From: a phage
Direction: 5' to 3' (one strand)
Length of the DNA stretch: 44,007 nucleotides
Sequence record: PX907401.1
Part shown: one piece after another, positions 1 to 44,007 of the stretch
Layout: each line of letters opens with the position of its first letter
Numbering within the stretch: position 1 is the stretch's first letter
The notes under the pieces: generated by a model
The model's database searches: none
Seen by the model: only the letters and a program-made list of their open reading frames with translations
What the model was told of the DNA's origin: nothing
Made by a program: the position numbers and the translations under genes

Positions 1-70
1 ATTACGGCATCGTTGCCGTGTCCAATGCCTTTTTTCGACAGGCGGGCTTTCCGCATATAAACATTGCGTA
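1..70. repeat. Terminal direct repeat, identical to 43938-44007 (circular closure overlap or terminal redundancy)
   Basis: 70/70 identity between the two window ends, read directly from the sequence. Confidence 0.9.
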
Positions 71-168
71 GGGCAATACCGTATTTCTTCGCAATATCTT
101 TAACCGTAGTCCCTGCCTGAATTTCTGCGATCAATTGCTCATCGGTAATTTTAGTTTGCGGGTGCATA
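1..168 (-). CDS. N-terminal segment (HTH-like) of the wrap-around metallophosphoesterase gene; continues at 42962-44007 on the circular map
   Basis: ATG at 168 in frame with the M at 43993 (= position 56); translation MHPQTKITDEQLIAEIQAGTTVKDIAKKYGIALRNVYMRKARL...; AGGA about 10 nt upstream. Confidence 0.5.
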
Positions 169-188
169 TTTAATTAATTCCTGATTAG

Positions 189-214
189 TGGACCGTGGAC
201 AATATACCACGGTC
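189..214. promoter_or_regulatory. Perfect 9-bp inverted repeat GGACCGTGG-N8-CCACGGTCC (candidate operator or hairpin) upstream of the phosphoesterase gene
   Basis: Palindrome arms read directly; spacer acaatata. Confidence 0.3.
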
Positions 215-296
215 CGTATGGCGGCGGGCGATATCAATTCGCAAATATCTTTACGTGCCATCTTGATTACTCCTCCAGTTGATTGGTTGCGAGTCA

Positions 297-326
297 AGCA
301 ATAAAAAGCCCGGAATTAACCGGGCT
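297..326 (-). terminator. Rho-independent terminator closing the minus-strand lysis operon
   Basis: Minus-strand hairpin AGCCCGG-TTAATT-CCGGGCT followed by TTTTATTGCT, 8 nt after the stop of ORF 334-507. Confidence 0.6.
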
Positions 327-333
327 TGATTGT

Positions 334-507
334 TTACGTCACTGGGTCAGATTCCTCCTGCGGTGGTGGTGGTGGGCTTGGCAGCTTCGCATCGAAGACC
401 CCGGCGTGGTTGATAGAGTCCGCGATGATAGCGCGTGCGCCTGGGTCTTCGGTTTTAGCCAGTGCGGCAAGCGCGTCCGCATTATGATCAAGAATGCTTT
501 TTAACAT
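334..507 (-). CDS. Small hypothetical protein (57 aa), not in the ORF track
   Basis: ATG at 507 preceded by GAGG at about 8 nt; MLKSILDHNADALAALAKTEDPGARAIIADSINHAGVFDAKLPSPPPPQEESDPVT; lies between endolysin and terminator. Confidence 0.35.
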   Translation of the reverse strand: MLKSILDHNADALAALAKTEDPGARAIIADSINHAGVFDAKLPSPPPPPQEESDPVT

Positions 508-3696: not shown

Positions 3697-3836
3697 GGCA
3701 ACCAATGCGCGCAAAATTTAACCTTTTAGCGATATGGGAATTCCCATATCGGCAACCAATGCGCGCAAAATTTAACCTTTTAGCGATATGGGAATTCCCA
3801 TATTGGCAACCAATGCGCGCAAAATTTAATCTTTTA
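3697..3836. repeat. Tandem direct repeat, 54-bp unit x about 2.6, each unit with a perfect 18-bp palindrome ATATGGGAATTCCCATAT and a GCAACCAAT motif
   Basis: Units at 3697-3750, 3751-3804 and partial 3805-3836; palindromes at 3732-3749 and 3786-3803; overlaps the primase stop codon (3826-3828). Confidence 0.9.
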
Positions 3837-6090
3837 AATCATCATCGGTCGCTGAAAGCGTGATGGGTATGTTCGTTTTGATGACGATATTAGACGACCC
3901 ATAGATGGCCCCGGTGTGTGGGTCTGTGTAAAACCCAAGCACGCCGCGCTCGACCATATCGTCTATTGCCTTCGTCGATGTGCCACCTTTTGCCAATCCC
4001 GCCTGGCGGACGATTGCCGATTTACTGAATCCGGTATGGTCCGGGTTATCTTCCATCAGTTTTTCCAGTGCCGCATAAAGCACTTTCTCTTTTTCGTTGC
4101 GCGGTCCGGCGGCATTCTCTTCCTTAACTGCGGCTTTGCCAGCGGCCTTTGCTTGCTCAATGGCGAACGGTGCCAGGGCGACCGGTACGAGATAAAGAGT
4201 CTCGTCGCGTGGCGTGGATGCAATTGGCTTGACGTCCCAACCGGCAACCACGTCGCCGAAGTCAGGCCCGGTGCTGGTGGACTGGTGTGATTCGAACGCT
4301 TCGGACTTGCGGAGATCCACCTTAACCTTGCACTTGAGCAGGACGAAGCCGCGCGGCGCTTGCTTGATGCCGTTACGTGCCTTTTCGTGATACAGGTTCA
4401 ATTGGCCCGGCTGATTGTCGTCCGGTTGCTCCAGGAAGAACGCAGAATCGACAGCGCCATGCAGCGCGCCGGACCCACGGGGAGATCTGCTGCCGTTTGC
4501 ACCCTTCGCCGGGTGGTGGATGACGCCCGCACTGCCGCCTGTATTTTCCGCAATGGCCTTCAGCGCTTTGACCACTTCACCCATATCGCTGGCGTTGTTC
4601 TCGTCGAACGGTTTTGCATTGGCGGACCGCAGCGCAACAGTCTGGTTGAGTGAGTCGAACGCCACCAGGCCAACCGGTTCGCCGTTAGCGGTGCGGTTGA
4701 TGAAGCTGATAACTTCGCGCAAGCCGGACTTGTTGGTGATATCCCAGCCGCGTGACTGCAGATCGATAATGTGCAGCTTGTCGAGGTCGTGCTCATATTT
4801 AATCTGCAATGCTTCTTTGCGCTGGTTAGAGGCTTCACCACCTTCCGCATCGAAATAGAAGCAATGAGACTGGACGACCTTCGCACCGCCGAACGGAATA
4901 CCGGCGGCAACCGCGCCCATCTGCCCCAGCACATAGAAAGACTTACCAATGTTCGACTCGCCCGCCATATACCAGGTCGATTTGAAGTTAATCAACCCCT
5001 CGATAATCGGGTCGTGCTTACTGAACAGCGCAACCGGCTCGTTATCCAGATCCGCATCAGTACACACGCCGTACTCGTCGCCGTCTCCGACCGCATCAAC
5101 GATATGTTCATAGCACGATTCCACTTCCTCATCGTCCAGTCCCGGAAGGATGGCGGCGATTTGCTTACGTGACATGTTGTGCGGCTCGACGTTCAGGTGG
5201 TCCGGGATCCCGATAAGACGTAGCGCCAGGTGCTGGTGTCTGTTCAGTTCCGAGCAACACTCGTTGCCGGTGTGCATACACTTGAAACGGATCTCGCCAT
5301 CCTTAACCATGATAGCGGTTGACCCTTCGCCACTATGCAGATGTTCGTTCGGGCATGGCACTTCATAACCCCGACCGGACGACAGCGGTTCGAATCCTGC
5401 CTGGAAGCACCAGTCCAGAATGCCGTCCGCCACGCCGTCATCGCCCTGGGTTAGTTCGCGGCGTACTTTCTCTTTTTCCACTCCCAGCTTATCAGCCAGG
5501 CGAAGCAGACGACGGACGCGGGCACGCTTGCCGTAGTGGCACTTAATAACGGACTGCTGGTGTGGCAGGTACATCAGGCGGTTTGTATCTTTCGTGCAAT
5601 CGTCGAAGTCCACATCTGACAGACCCAGTTGGTGTAATAGTGCATACTGGACGCGGCCCAGGTCTTCAGCCGGTACAGGCTTGTCAGTGAGCACCAGGAA
5701 ACGGGCGCAACGCGTGCCGCCCTTCAGCGGGTGGCGGTCGCCGGTGGTGGTGTGAAATACGTGTTCCAGACCCGAGTCGATGAACGCCTTACGGCAGCGG
5801 CGCAGGGTGCGGGTGTCGGTGCGGTCAATATCAAAGAACAGGATCGAGCGGTCCACCGCACTGGTCTTACGACGCAATCCGTCACTGGTATACGCCACGA
5901 TGCCATCGGCCTTACGCTTGCGGCGCGCATACTCGGCTTTATCTTCCGTCTTGTTGATATGCACCGAGGAGATTTCTTTCGCATCTTTGATAAATTCGAA
6001 AAACTCATCGGTCGTCATCTGGAAGTTTTCCGCCCTGGCTTTTTCGCCTTTTTTAGCGGGTTTTGTTACAGCGAATTTAATCAAGCTCAT
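3826..6090 (-). CDS. Bifunctional DNA primase/helicase (primase-like N-terminal domain, P-loop ATPase C-terminal domain)
   Basis: 754 aa; FFDIDRTD acidic motif in the N-terminal domain; Walker A GESNIGKS and Walker B-like VAFDSL in the C-terminal domain. Confidence 0.8.
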   Translation of the reverse strand: MSLIKFAVTKPAKKGEKARAENFQMTTDEFFEFIKDAKEISSVHINKTEDKAEYARRKRKADGIVAYTSDGLRRKTSAVDRSILFFDIDRTDTRTLRRCRKAFIDSGLEHVFHTTTGDRHPLKGGTRCARFLVLTDKPVPAEDLGRVQYALLHQLGLSDVDFDDCTKDTNRLMYLPHQQSVIKCHYGKRARVRRLLRLADKLGVEKEKVRRELTQGDDGVADGILDWCFQAGFEPLSSGRGYEVPCPNEHLHSGEGSTAIMVKDGEIRFKCMHTGNECCSELNRHQHLALRLIGIPDHLNVEPHNMSRKQIAAILPGLDDEEVESCYEHIVDAVGDGDEYGVCTDADLDNEPVALFSKHDPIIEGLINFKSTWYMAGESNIGKSFYVLGQMGAVAAGIPFGGAKVVQSHCFYFDAEGGEASNQRKEALQIKYEHDLDKLHIIDLQSRGWDITNKSGLREVISFINRTANGEPVGLVAFDSLNQTVALRSANAKPFDENNASDMGEVVKALKAIAENTGGSAGVIHHPAKGANGSRSPRGSGALHGAVDSAFFLEQPDDNQPGQLNLYHEKARNGIKQAPRGFVLLKCKVKVDLRKSEAFESHQSTSTGPDFGDVVAGWDVKPIASTPRDETLYLVPVALAPFAIEQAKAAGKAAVKEENAAGPRNEKEKVLYAALEKLMEDNPDHTGFSKSAIVRQAGLAKGGTSTKAIDDMVERGVLGFYTDPHTGAIYGSSNIVIKTNIPITLSATDDDLKD

Positions 6091-40710: not shown

Positions 40711-42096
40711 TTAGTAGAAGTCTACAGTTGGAACAACGGCGATCGGACGAATCACTGGGAACAGGTGCGCAATTGGATAGCCCGCGGCATCGTTCATGTG
40801 GTCCACACCGGCGGTTTTATCCGGCTCGCCTTTCTTCAGGTCGTAAACCTGCTGTTCCAGACATTTCGCTAGTGTAGGGCATTTATCCAGGTTGACAAAA
40901 TACTGGCGCACGCCCTTCGAGTTGCACATCATCGTATTCATCGCGATCAATCGGTCTTTCACAGGTGGGTTAACACTGTCGTATTCTACCTCGAAGCCTG
41001 CGTCTTCCAGTTGCGCTATATCGGACGACGATGCGTTGACAGTCTTGCGAGACTTGCCGCTGCTATCCGGGTAAACGACTACCCGACCGGCAGCACAATG
41101 ATCGGGGTAGCGCTCCTCGATCGCCTCAATCATAGCCGGGGTATCAAACAGGTCTACGAATTCATCCACTGCGTGAATCTCGTCGCGGAACTCCTTGTTT
41201 TCGGTGATGCGCTGCCGTCTGACGTACACGACCGCCGCCATCTTCGTGACGTTAAAGTCCATACCGATAATCAGCGTGTCGTCCGGTTGCACTTCTTCGG
41301 TGCTGGCGTTCTCCTCGCGGTTGAACATCTTGTACACCGCGCCCGACGTAAGGTTGACAAACAAGCCGTTCAAGTACGCATCAATCAGGTTAGCCGGGTA
41401 CTGACTGCGCAGCGTGTCGATAAAGTCCGCCGGTAAATGGTGGTTGTCCGTGGTCTTCGCCCGGATCAAGCGTTTCTGGTTGTCTTTCTCCACCTCGAAA
41501 ATTTGGTACATCGCCCGGTAGCCTTCAGGCGTTGACACGATGACGAACTGGCGGACGAAGCCAGCACGCAGACGACCGAGCAATTTGTGATATGCCGCCA
41601 GCGCGACGTCTTGTTTCGTGGTGTCGAACTCGTCGGCAACAATCCACGCGGCGTTGATACCGATCAGGCGGGTATAGTTCTCCATTGACTCACAGATAAC
41701 GCGAGTCCATTTGCCTTTCACCAGCACGTTGTAAATCTTGTCCTGCTTATTGAACTTCCACCGGAAGCCAGCCTCGTCGAATGCCTTCTCCAGTTCCGGA
41801 TACATGATTTTAACCAGGAGTGGAATAGTCGGTTCGGTCACGATGCCGTCATAACCAGGGTTAAGTGTCAGAAGCTGGATGACCTTACGTGCGGCAACCC
41901 ATGACTTGCCACCGCCGAAGCCGGAACACAGGCCGAGGATTTTAGTCTTCGTGTCGCGCAGTAGTTCAACCTGGTGCGGCAAGCAATCTGGCTGGTAAAG
42001 ACGCACAGCCTGCGCAACGCGGGTCGGGCGTGGCGGTCGGTTACGCTTTGCGATCGCTCGTTCAAGGGCGCGGTGTTCTGCCGCATAGTTACGCAT
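40711..42096 (-). CDS. terL: Terminase large subunit
   Basis: 461 aa; Walker A GLCSGFGGGKS, Walker B WIVADEFD, C-terminal nuclease-like acidic motifs. Confidence 0.85.
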   Translation of the reverse strand: MRNYAAEHRALERAIAKRNRPPRPTRVAQAVRLYQPDCLPHQVELLRDTKTKILGLCSGFGGGKSWVAARKVIQLLTLNPGYDGIVTEPTIPLLVKIMYPELEKAFDEAGFRWKFNKQDKIYNVLVKGKWTRVICESMENYTRLIGINAAWIVADEFDTTKQDVALAAYHKLLGRLRAGFVRQFVIVSTPEGYRAMYQIFEVEKDNQKRLIRAKTTDNHHLPADFIDTLRSQYPANLIDAYLNGLFVNLTSGAVYKMFNREENASTEEVQPDDTLIIGMDFNVTKMAAVVYVRRQRITENKEFRDEIHAVDEFVDLFDTPAMIEAIEERYPDHCAAGRVVVYPDSSGKSRKTVNASSSDIAQLEDAGFEVEYDSVNPPVKDRLIAMNTMMCNSKGVRQYFVNLDKCPTLAKCLEQQVYDLKKGEPDKTAGVDHMNDAAGYPIAHLFPVIRPIAVVPTVDFY

Positions 42097-42668
42097 TATT
42101 CACCCTGGCCTTTGCCGGTAGGCTCCACAACGACGTCGCCGTTATCATCTTCGTCGTCATCCAGCGGCACATCGTCGCGGACGCCGTGGTTTGCTTTAAG
42201 CAGGAATGTAGCGAAGCCCGCAGCGATGGTTACGCCGCCAGCTTCCATCAGGAATGTTTTCTGTAGCTCCATAGCGTCAGCCATAGCCTCGGCGAACTCC
42301 TCATGTGCGCGCGCCCAGCGATACAGGCAAGCTACGCCCACGCCGATTTCCGCGGCAAATCGACCGAAGGTTGGCATTTTGTTGCGGGGGATTACTTGCG
42401 CAGCGCCTTTATCGGAGTAGTTTACCTGCCAGGCGTCGGCGTCGGCAAAATAGCGGCGAAGCTGGTCGCAGTAAACGGATCGGTAGTCAGTAGGTCGTCC
42501 ACATTTGCCGCCTTTACGGCGCTTTCCGTACTTGATTTCAGGTCCGAGATTGGTATGCTCGGTTTGCTCGCCTGGTTTACGGCGCGGGGTTACCGCTACT
42601 CGTCCGTCCAGTTTGGCGCGTCGGCCCTTAACTTTGATTTCTGCCATGATATAAGCCCTTTTGTGCAT
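42096..42668 (-). CDS. terS: Terminase small subunit
   Basis: 190 aa; HTH-like FGRFAAEIGVGVACLYRWA; acidic C-terminus; stop overlaps the terL start. Confidence 0.65.
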   Translation of the reverse strand: MHKRAYIMAEIKVKGRRAKLDGRVAVTPRRKPGEQTEHTNLGPEIKYGKRRKGGKCGRPTDYRSVYCDQLRRYFADADAWQVNYSDKGAAQVIPRNKMPTFGRFAAEIGVGVACLYRWARAHEEFAEAMADAMELQKTFLMEAGGVTIAAGFATFLLKANHGVRDDVPLDDDEDDNGDVVVEPTGKGQGE

Positions 42669-42716: not shown

Positions 42717-42725
42717 ATTATAACA
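42717..42725 (-). promoter_or_regulatory. Candidate extended -10 element (TGTTATAAT) upstream of terS
   Basis: Minus strand reads tgcctGTTATAATcccc about 45 nt upstream of the terS ATG; no good -35. Confidence 0.3.
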
Positions 42726-42730
42726 GGCAC

Positions 42731-42756
42731 AAAAAAGCCCACCAAATCGGCGGGCT
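42731..42756 (-). terminator. Rho-independent terminator between the phosphoesterase operon and terS
   Basis: Minus-strand hairpin AGCCCGCC-GATTT-GGTGGGCT (one G-U pair) followed by TTTTTT. Confidence 0.55.
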
Positions 42757-42763
42757 GTGCGGT

Positions 42764-42871
42764 TTAAACGGCGCGCCCGTAGTATCGGGTTAACATGCTT
42801 TCTACTTCGCTTATTGCGCCTTCTGTGTAGCGTATTTGCGACAGTATCTCGATCCGCTCACTAATAGACAT
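42764..42871 (-). CDS. Possible small ORF (35 aa from ATG; frame open for 60 codons)
   Basis: MSISERIEILSQIRYTEGAISEVESMLTRYYGRAV; no clear RBS. Confidence 0.25.
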   Translation of the reverse strand: MSISERIEILSQIRYTEGAISEVESMLTRYYGRAV

Positions 42872-42961
42872 GCCGATTGCCGCTGCCGTTCGTTCGAATC
42901 GGCGCAATCCTTCCAGTTGTTTGCGTAGTTCTTTCAGGCGTGCTCATGAATACTTGTCTGA

Positions 42962-44007
42962 TCATTTCAACATTTCCGGGCTAATGGTTAAGCGCGCTAC
43001 TTCGCCGTAGTTGGCGCTATAGGTGATGACGTTTGCGCTGCGACCTGACATCCAACCGCCACGACTGGCGTAGGCGTCTTTCGCTGCGAGCGTCCTGTGC
43101 TGTTCAACAATCATGTTGCGGGATTCAACAATCTTCTGGTGGTGCAAATGGCCTACGTGCGCGTAGCTGTATTCGCTCGACCCGAAAGCCTGTCTGAATT
43201 TAGCGATCATAACCTGCTCGATAACATCGAATCGCGCTTTGTGCCCGTGGTGGAAAAATAGTGTGGTCTTACCGTGCTGCACCATTTTGTAGACGTCCGG
43301 GGACGTATCCACATCGACGCGCGGCTCGTTCTCGTACAGCGTGTTGAACATCTCAGCAAGCCAAATCATGCCCGACTCGTCATGATTCCCCTGGACGATT
43401 AGCAGTTTGACTTTGTGGTGTTTTTGCAGCGCCAGTTCGACGACGTTGCGCACCATGCGAATCATGTAGCGGACCAACTTCTGGTATCGGGTGTCGGCGT
43501 CCAGTATGTGACCACTTGCCGGAGTGACAGCATCGAGGCTATCAAAGTGGGCCATATCACCGAGGATATTAATTACGGCAGTGCCTGCGTCCGGGGCGCG
43601 GGCGAAGGCTTCGACAAACCAGCGGTAAAACAGGTCTTCGGCAATCGCCATATCCCAGTCTTCGCCAGTCTCCTCGCCCCAGGCCAACATGCCCAGGTGG
43701 AAGTCTGACACAGTGTACAGGTTGAGTAGGTCGAGCGCCTGGATCGGGACTGGCGGGGCGCTTACTGGTGCTGCCGGTGTGATTTCGCTGTTCATGCCCT
43801 CGACAACAGCGCGCATGGCTTCAAGCTGGCGCTCCTTGTCCTGCTCAGTGATAACCCACGACATGACCTCTTCGCCATTTCCGCGCACCAGGGCCGATAC
43901 GCGCTTAACCCCAAACCCATCGGCAACGCGCTTGCGTATTACGGCATCGTTGCCGTGTCCAATGCCTTTTTTCGACAGGCGGGCTTTCCGCATATAAACA
44001 TTGCGTA
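42962..44007 (-). CDS. Calcineurin-like metallophosphoesterase, truncated by the window edge (N-terminal HTH segment is at 1-168)
   Basis: Motifs SDFHLG, GDMAHFD, GNHDE, GHLHH read in the translation; the ORF runs into the terminal repeat. Confidence 0.75.
   Translation of the reverse strand, partial: RNVYMRKARLSKKGIGHGNDAVIRKRVADGFGVKRVSALVRGNGEEVMSWVITEQDKERQLEAMRAVVEGMNSEITPAAPVSAPPVPIQALDLLNLYTVSDFHLGMLAWGEETGEDWDMAIAEDLFYRWFVEAFARAPDAGTAVINILGDMAHFDSLDAVTPASGHILDADTRYQKLVRYMIRMVRNVVELALQKHHKVKLLIVQGNHDESGMIWLAEMFNTLYENEPRVDVDTSPDVYKMVQHGKTTLFFHHGHKARFDVIEQVMIAKFRQAFGSSEYSYAHVGHLHHQKIVESRNMIVEQHRTLAAKDAYASRGGWMSGRSANVITYSANYGEVARLTISPEMLK
43938..44007. repeat. Terminal direct repeat, identical to 1-70
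   Basis: Same 70-nt string as the window start. Confidence 0.9.

Follow-up and report, generated by a model that had tools for sequence, protein, structure and literature searches.

Described systems closest to the locus

The nucleases Mre11 and SbcD, considered here together with the phage enzymes of the T4 gp47 type, have the metallophosphoesterase (MPE) fold, a capping domain and an ATPase partner of the Rad50/SbcC type. DP1, the small subunit of PolD, is an archaeal 3'-5' proofreading exonuclease with an OB domain and a polymerase partner, and the Pseudomonas putida MPE, PdeM (PDB code: 6nvo), is a DNA nuclease of the MPE fold that is genetically linked to an ATP-dependent ligase. Phosphatases of the PPP type are marked by the signatures GDxxDRG and GNHE, and the lambda phosphatase gene ninI sits directly upstream of the Q antiterminator. 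Stand-alone MPEs are encoded by cluster A mycobacteriophages (gp48 of A10ZJ24 and gp47 of Bxb1); A10ZJ24 gp48 is a DNase in vitro, destroys host DNA and is needed against host defences (PMC12287305). In Drexlerviridae an HTH-metallophosphoesterase gene has been described as persistent, and the exonuclease is most commonly followed there by genes for a polynucleotide kinase and a dNMP kinase (PMC13164509). The protein described below is of this HTH-metallophosphoesterase type, in the family phrog_704, for which the searched literature yielded no biochemical or genetic study. Three further papers proved to lie outside the subject: one on host-DNA degradation by T5 holds nothing on the MPE fold, one on anti-Tmn activity in Dhillonvirus deals with a different gene and one on PUA-Cal-HAD describes a host defence enzyme.

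The gene across the circular junction

The DNA analysed here (PX907401.1; 44,007 nucleotides, the whole of which is called the window) comes from a Dhillonvirus, that is, an HK578-like virulent coliphage. Sequence comparison showed that positions 1-70 are exactly those of 43938-44007, a 70-bp direct terminal repeat, therefore the sequence closes into a circle, which measures 43,937 bp once the overlapping ends are merged. Complete assemblies of circularly permuted phage genomes usually overlap at their ends in this way, and the circular 43,937-bp assembly fits a Dhillonvirus with a circularly permuted genome and headful packaging.

The preliminary description of the sequence had the gene crossing the window ends and starting at the ATG at 168, and both statements were borne out. 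The reverse complement of 42962..44007 joined to 71..168 translates into a single minus-strand ORF of 380 codons with zero internal stops, in which the ATG at 166-168 is the earliest start codon past the in-frame stop. According to the ORF list and the joined translation, the 3' 1,046 nt of the gene occupy 42962..44007 (minus strand, residues ~33-380, stop codon at 42962-42964), and its 5' end occupies 1..168 (minus strand, residues 1-56), where bases 1-70 duplicate 43938-44007. The N-terminal extension gained across the junction (about 37 residues) belongs to the protein, since distant phages are matched by tblastn from query residue 4-6 onwards and HK578 gp59 has the same annotated length of 380 aa.

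A common phage protein of the phrog_704 family

The profile of phrog_704 ('DNA repair exonuclease') matches the window protein over its full length (E 1.4e-160; residues 5-380 on profile positions 2-390 of 390), and it is also the best match of homologues from five other phage groups. The family name denotes a predicted function. Proteins of HK578, the bov phages, PEC14, SECphi4 and others are 99.2-99.5% identical to the window protein and have been labelled by their depositors as 'hypothetical protein', 'calcineurin-like phosphoesterase' or 'DNA repair exonuclease'. HK578 gp59 (YP_007112666), at the matching genome position, is 99.2% identical across 380 residues, and the nearest cluster representative differs from the window protein by four substitutions, with no difference of substance.

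Homologues were found in 2,061 of 50,697 phage records, 1,682 of them with at least 80% query coverage. A word-index search at 90% identity matched 3,652 clusters; of the representatives of 50%-identity clusters, 4,674 reached E <= 0.001 and 1,132 of these also E <= 1e-30. Identity to the window protein is 96-99% within Dhillonvirus, ~75% in Kagunavirus, ~49% in Jerseyvirus (72-75% in some Salmonella phages) and 43-47% in the T1-like Drexlerviridae, and is lower in Rhizobium, Vibrio and Campylobacter phages and in N4-like roseophages; fold-level relatives are present also in phages of Gram-positive hosts, according to the viral predicted-structure library BFVD. The window gene is thus a known, annotated and very common phage gene, and the view that its arrangement is unusual has to be abandoned: an HTH-MPE protein that is already annotated occurs in all of the 2,061 records. 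Being 99% identical to a gene already annotated in a well-sampled coliphage genus, the window gene matters little by itself.

Domain organization and catalytic motifs

The architecture of the protein was read from an AlphaFold2 model (pLDDT 88.7, pTM 0.76) built on an alignment of 111 homologues (alignment A1) that share 29-80%, mostly 38-50%, identity with the reference. The N-terminal HTH (residues 9-44; 37-144, minus strand), located by Pfam matches, comprises helices 9-17, 22-29 and 33-44 in the model and is followed by a short connecting segment of low model confidence. A conserved beta-hairpin (residues 64-88) and helix (90-106), encoded by 43787..43924 (minus strand) and defined by the secondary structure of the model, include the near-invariant G63, S70, G77 and W83 of the region; they precede a Pro-rich linker (residues 107-125; 43730-43786, minus strand) and the catalytic MPE domain (residues 126-380; 42965-43729, minus strand), in which the alpha/beta sandwich of the MPE fold is present.

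All five motifs of the superfamily, DxH, GDxx(D/H), GNH(D/E), H and GHxH, were found in the translation, and over the 111 homologues, down to ~40% identity, each motif residue is either invariant or conserved to at least 90%. On the minus strand, motif I is D134-F-H136 (43697-43705), with D134 and H136 invariant; motif II is G182-D-M-A-H186-F-D188 (43541-43561), with G182, D183, H186 and D188 invariant; motif III is G239-N-H-D-E243 (43376-43390), with H241 invariant and N240 and D242 at least 90% conserved; motif IV is H285-H-G-H288 (43241-43252), at least 90% conserved; and motif V is G318-H-L-H-H322 (43139-43153), with G318, H319 and H321 at least 90% conserved. The metal ligands are invariant in the alignment, as are H186, D188, R206, R262 and H336. 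The Pfam models Metallophos (22.8 bits, gathering threshold 27) and Metallophos_2 (20.3 bits, threshold 21.5) both scored below cut-off on the window protein, and the Metallophos models match only 6 of the 111 homologues at E <= 0.01; these sub-threshold scores reflect the sensitivity of the models on a divergent clade and not an absent feature.

Pfam detection of the HTH is weak for the window protein alone (GerE, HTH_7 and HTH_28, E 0.02-0.06) and clear among the homologues, where HTH_30 matches 37 and HTH_8 27 of the 111 (best E 1.5e-8), with further matches to HTH_23 (18/111) and HTH_28 (17/111). An N-terminal HTH joined to a calcineurin-like phosphoesterase with intact motifs, as first proposed from the letters of the sequence, is therefore what the five motifs, the homologues and the model agree on. 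Some members of the family, e.g. those of Campylobacter phages, are without the HTH, hence the phosphoesterase domain is the core of the protein and the HTH is accessory.

Structural relatives and their limits

A Foldseek search of the PDB returned Mre11 first (E 3e-8), interspersed with Rv0805, DP1 and GpdQ. Nuclease clades are the nearest in fold, narrowly and with sequence identities of 13-16%, and SbcD and Mre11 are supported as the nearest solved folds; generic phosphodiesterases (MJ0936, Rv0805, GpdQ, YfcE and LpxH) score almost level with the nucleases. Single-sequence and profile searches of the PDB gave no metallophosphoesterase, Mre11 or SbcD match, only spurious repeat proteins and a weak HTH of the DeoR type, and a search of NCBIfam gave nothing useful (PdeM, 10 bits against a cut-off of 150).

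The resemblance to Mre11 and SbcD (and to the T4 gp47-type phage enzymes) is confined to 13-16% identity over ~190 aligned residues. Alignment A1 compared with Escherichia coli SbcD by hhalign reached a probability of 2.4%, the GNHD strand alone being aligned, and SbcD itself falls in phrog_100, not in phrog_704. The capping domain of Mre11/SbcD is missing, there being no room for it in the 58 residues that follow motif V, and the window protein differs from these enzymes also by its N-terminal HTH. A Rad50/SbcC-type ATPase partner is not annotated in the near-identical HK578 genome, nor does a gene of this type recur among the common neighbour clusters of 85 related loci. The 'Mre11/SbcD-like' of the preliminary description is thus fair for the fold and not for the family. 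DP1 shows similarly a fold-level likeness only (~11-14% identity), and its OB domain and its relationship with a polymerase partner are absent for the window protein.

The MPEs of cluster A mycobacteriophages are likewise phage-encoded and stand-alone, but they are 255 aa long, lack the HTH module and map to phrog_221; an hhalign comparison of the family alignment with Bxb1 gp47 was not significant (probability 2.9%). Their precedent nevertheless bears on a possible role as a host-takeover or anti-defence DNase that degrades the host chromosome, supplies nucleotides and silences host defence genes; this is a specific form of the nuclease proposal (see below) that differs in the target. A10ZJ24 gp48 is such an MPE acting on host DNA (PMC12287305), the HTH would bind DNA non-specifically or bind host DNA, and the candidate promoter of the window gene (see below) is of the host sigma-70 type. 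We nevertheless consider this role rather unlikely: neither gp48 nor gp47 has significant profile similarity to the window family, the position of the gene, distal in a long rightward array and past the lysis genes, is not obviously an early one, and the sparing of the phage's own DNA would be left unexplained.

The near-equal scores of MJ0936, Rv0805, GpdQ, YfcE and LpxH would also suit a phosphodiesterase acting on small molecules or RNA ends, i.e. an enzyme that hydrolyses a nucleotide second messenger as an anti-defence measure or that heals 2',3'-cyclic phosphate or 3'-phosphate RNA ends together with PNKP-like enzymes, its HTH being purely autoregulatory. Genes for a PNKP-type phosphatase and a kinase do lie downstream in several lineages, and the -10-like element of some Dhillonviruses is overlapped by a palindrome, as would befit an operator. 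The top structural matches are nucleases, however, the module of HTH, hairpin and helix is kept in families without a conserved upstream palindrome, no PADLOC defence-system model matched the protein (no family at E <= 1) and the literature search yielded no known anti-defence phosphodiesterase of the MPE fold; we regard this explanation as unlikely.

A probable separate transcription unit beside terS

The preliminary description had placed the gene directly upstream of terS. It is upstream and on the same strand, but not directly so: a gap of 293 nt, which holds a small ORF, a terminator-like hairpin and the element TGTTATAAT, separates it from terS (42096..42668, minus strand; phrog_3064 terminase, E 3e-73). 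The small ORF (42764..42907, minus strand; 47 aa, phrog_20931) is degenerate, an 11-nt deletion at its 5' end having removed the ATG-started frame of its HK578 counterpart gp60, and it seems to be dispensable or decaying, because besides this frame-removing deletion in the window the gp60-like ORF is wholly missing in phage CS16. The hairpin detected by the scan at 42736..42756 (minus strand; AGCCCGCCGATTTGGTGGGCT followed by T6), between the phosphoesterase unit and terS, is conserved in both HK578 and CS16, with a terminator annotation in the latter. Just past it, ~50 nt upstream of terS, TGTTATAAT (42717..42725, minus strand) is a consensus extended -10 that is conserved in the window, HK578 and CS16, and thus a candidate for a separate promoter of terS and the later packaging and structural genes.

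On the other side of the gene, the scan detected a second terminator-like hairpin, AAGCCCGG-N6-CCGGGCTT with a T run (306..327, minus strand), which probably ends the preceding lysis-gene unit; this hairpin is conserved as well, and at the equivalent place a terminator is annotated in CS16. Between this hairpin and the start codon lies a palindrome, GGACCGTGG-N8-CCACGGTCC, a perfect 9-bp inverted repeat (190..215, minus strand) that occurs once in the window, and at its centre the extended -10-like element TGGTATATT (minus strand), 33-47 nt upstream of the ATG and with its hexamer at 201-206. The core CCGTG[G/A]TATATTG is kept in six Dhillonvirus loci. In a subset of the relatives the HTH of the protein might bind the palindrome as its operator; as an autoregulatory operator it was set aside and is treated here mainly as a promoter element, because its arms vary across the Dhillonviruses and the central TG-N-TATATT is conserved. 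We infer from this conservation that the TG-N-TATATT element at 201-206, which the promoter scan did not report, is a candidate promoter of the phosphoesterase gene itself. With hairpins on both flanks, an extended -10-like element upstream and TGTTATAAT ahead of terS, the gene appears to form a short transcription unit of its own.

The ORF at 151..297 (minus strand) was rejected as a leader or coupled gene, being the remnant, broken by a 48-nt deletion, of an ORF for a hydrophobic peptide of 26 aa. In HK578 (about 5830-5910 of its locus) and CS16, this unannotated ORF (MARKDIWVLAIWTTAAFIGMVICELI) stands intact upstream of the phosphoesterase gene with a strong RBS, and the T1-like phage IsaakIselin has a hydrophobic ORF of 23 aa at the equivalent position. 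Together with the Imm-like membrane protein encoded at -1 in 13 related loci (see below), they may represent a recurring small membrane-protein partner of the phosphoesterase gene, or a coincidence. The stretch from the lysis genes to terS differs among strains in other respects too: at 334-507 (minus strand) the window has a 57-aa ORF (phrog_11068) and then the terminator, where HK578 has gp58, a protein of 133 aa that follows the endolysin and is annotated as 'structural protein with Ig domain'.

Gene neighbourhood in related phages

The proximity to terS invites the idea of a terminase accessory that assists TerS/TerL in pac cleavage or trims the packaged ends, and the preliminary description had raised end processing on the ground of this position. 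In Dhillonvirus the gene is indeed 293 nt upstream of terS and on the same strand. Packaging genes occur within four genes of it, however, in 4 of the 85 related loci, all of them Dhillonvirus, and neither Drexlerviridae and Guernseyvirinae nor the Rhizobium, Vibrio, Campylobacter and N4-like phages show packaging synteny: the phosphoesterase gene precedes the holin gene in Drexlerviridae, lies in an island amid tail genes in Guernseyvirinae and follows the lysozyme gene in a Rhizobium phage. The gene is set apart from terS by a terminator-like hairpin and a promoter-like element of its own for terS, and the N-terminal region of the protein matches no terminase family. A packaging accessory, which the comparative data largely refute, is in our judgement extremely unlikely. 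The adjacency to terS is a genus-specific accident of gene order with no functional link to packaging, since packaging synteny is limited to Dhillonvirus loci and the hairpins isolate the gene.

Several other neighbours recur among the 85 loci. An Imm-like membrane protein (phrog_1039) is encoded at position -1 in 13 loci, which are Guernseyvirinae-like; in ~10 loci the phosphoesterase gene is followed by those of a PNKP-type HAD phosphatase (+1) and a P-loop kinase (+2), and in 8 by that of a Q-like antiterminator (phrog_79, +1); dATP/dGTP pyrophosphohydrolase-like proteins, FEN-like exonucleases, HNH endonucleases and holin/endolysin are found as well. In two IMG/VR contigs (L032 and L035) an ATP-dependent DNA ligase gene is located at +3, past those of the PNKP-type phosphatase and the P-loop kinase, and in the Campylobacter phage F372 (homologue at L007 3848-4801) genes for a ligase and a Holliday-junction resolvase are just upstream. 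These three cases give the family a ligase linkage like that of PdeM. The cassettes of PNKP-type phosphatase, kinase and ligase suggest an end-healing and sealing module; the window itself is without PNKP, kinase and ligase neighbours, and the association comes from its relatives.

The 8 loci in which the gene is directly upstream of the Q-like antiterminator recall the position of ninI, and the HTH could be that of a regulator. The protein might accordingly be pictured as a protein phosphatase of the lambda NinI type (lambda-PPase) or a regulator, i.e. a moron-like accessory placed before late or lysis genes, whose targets would be phosphoproteins of the host or the phage, or which would act as a transcription factor. 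Its motifs speak against this: motif II reads GDMAHFD and motif III GNHD, neither of the PPP-type/lambda Ser/Thr phosphatase signatures (GDxxDRG and GNHE) is present in the window protein and the PPP fold is not its nearest neighbour. We hold such a role to be very improbable.

Proposed function

We propose, with confidence that is evenly balanced, that the protein is a stand-alone, DNA-tethered, metal-dependent nuclease or end-processing enzyme. The three-helix HTH at the N-terminus would bind DNA and be joined, through the beta-hairpin, the helix and the Pro-rich linker, to a divergent metallophosphoesterase domain whose binuclear metal-binding site is complete. Expressed as a short unit from its own extended -10-like promoter, the enzyme would cleave phosphodiester bonds of DNA in a Mn2+/Fe-dependent manner, trimming ends or structures exo- or endonucleolytically; its role would lie in the repair, recombination or replication of phage DNA, or in helping to degrade the DNA of the host. 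The DNA substrate and the role of the HTH, like the promoter, are what we infer from the features of the locus and its relatives. A DNA nuclease is favoured because the binuclear site is intact and nuclease clades are the nearest in fold, and because a DNA-binding module on a flexible linker is combined with a repeated linkage to end-healing and sealing enzymes; the DNase activity shown for a phage MPE of another family, A10ZJ24 gp48, also speaks for it. Against it, the HTH could autoregulate the gene instead of tethering the substrate.

A narrower version of this nuclease proposal, which we find improbable, would make the protein the end-cleaning nuclease of a phage DNA break-repair pathway, of which only the nuclease remains in Dhillonvirus. 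The full cassette, as in L032 and L035, would consist of the MPE, the PNKP phosphatase, the kinase and the ATP-dependent ligase. Were this so, the pathway would let phages survive DNA cleavage by restriction, CRISPR and other host nucleases, and thousands of phages would carry a Rad50-independent, HTH-tethered branch of Mre11-like nucleases. The wider phrog_704 family is in any case a fair target for study, its linkage to PNKP, kinase and ligase genes hinting at a role in phage DNA-end repair, a subject of current interest with regard to how phages withstand DNA-cutting defences; this hint is a property of the family and not a discovery in the window. As a possible nuclease of phage DNA repair that is independent of Rad50 and tethered by its HTH, the family may deserve experiments.

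Elsewhere in the window, positions 3697-3836 contain a 54-bp tandem repeat (2.6 copies, 97% identity) with the palindrome ATATGGGAATTCCCATAT in each unit. The repeats reach into the 3' end of the helicase-primase gene (minus strand, 3826..6090) and may be an iteron- or origin-like element.
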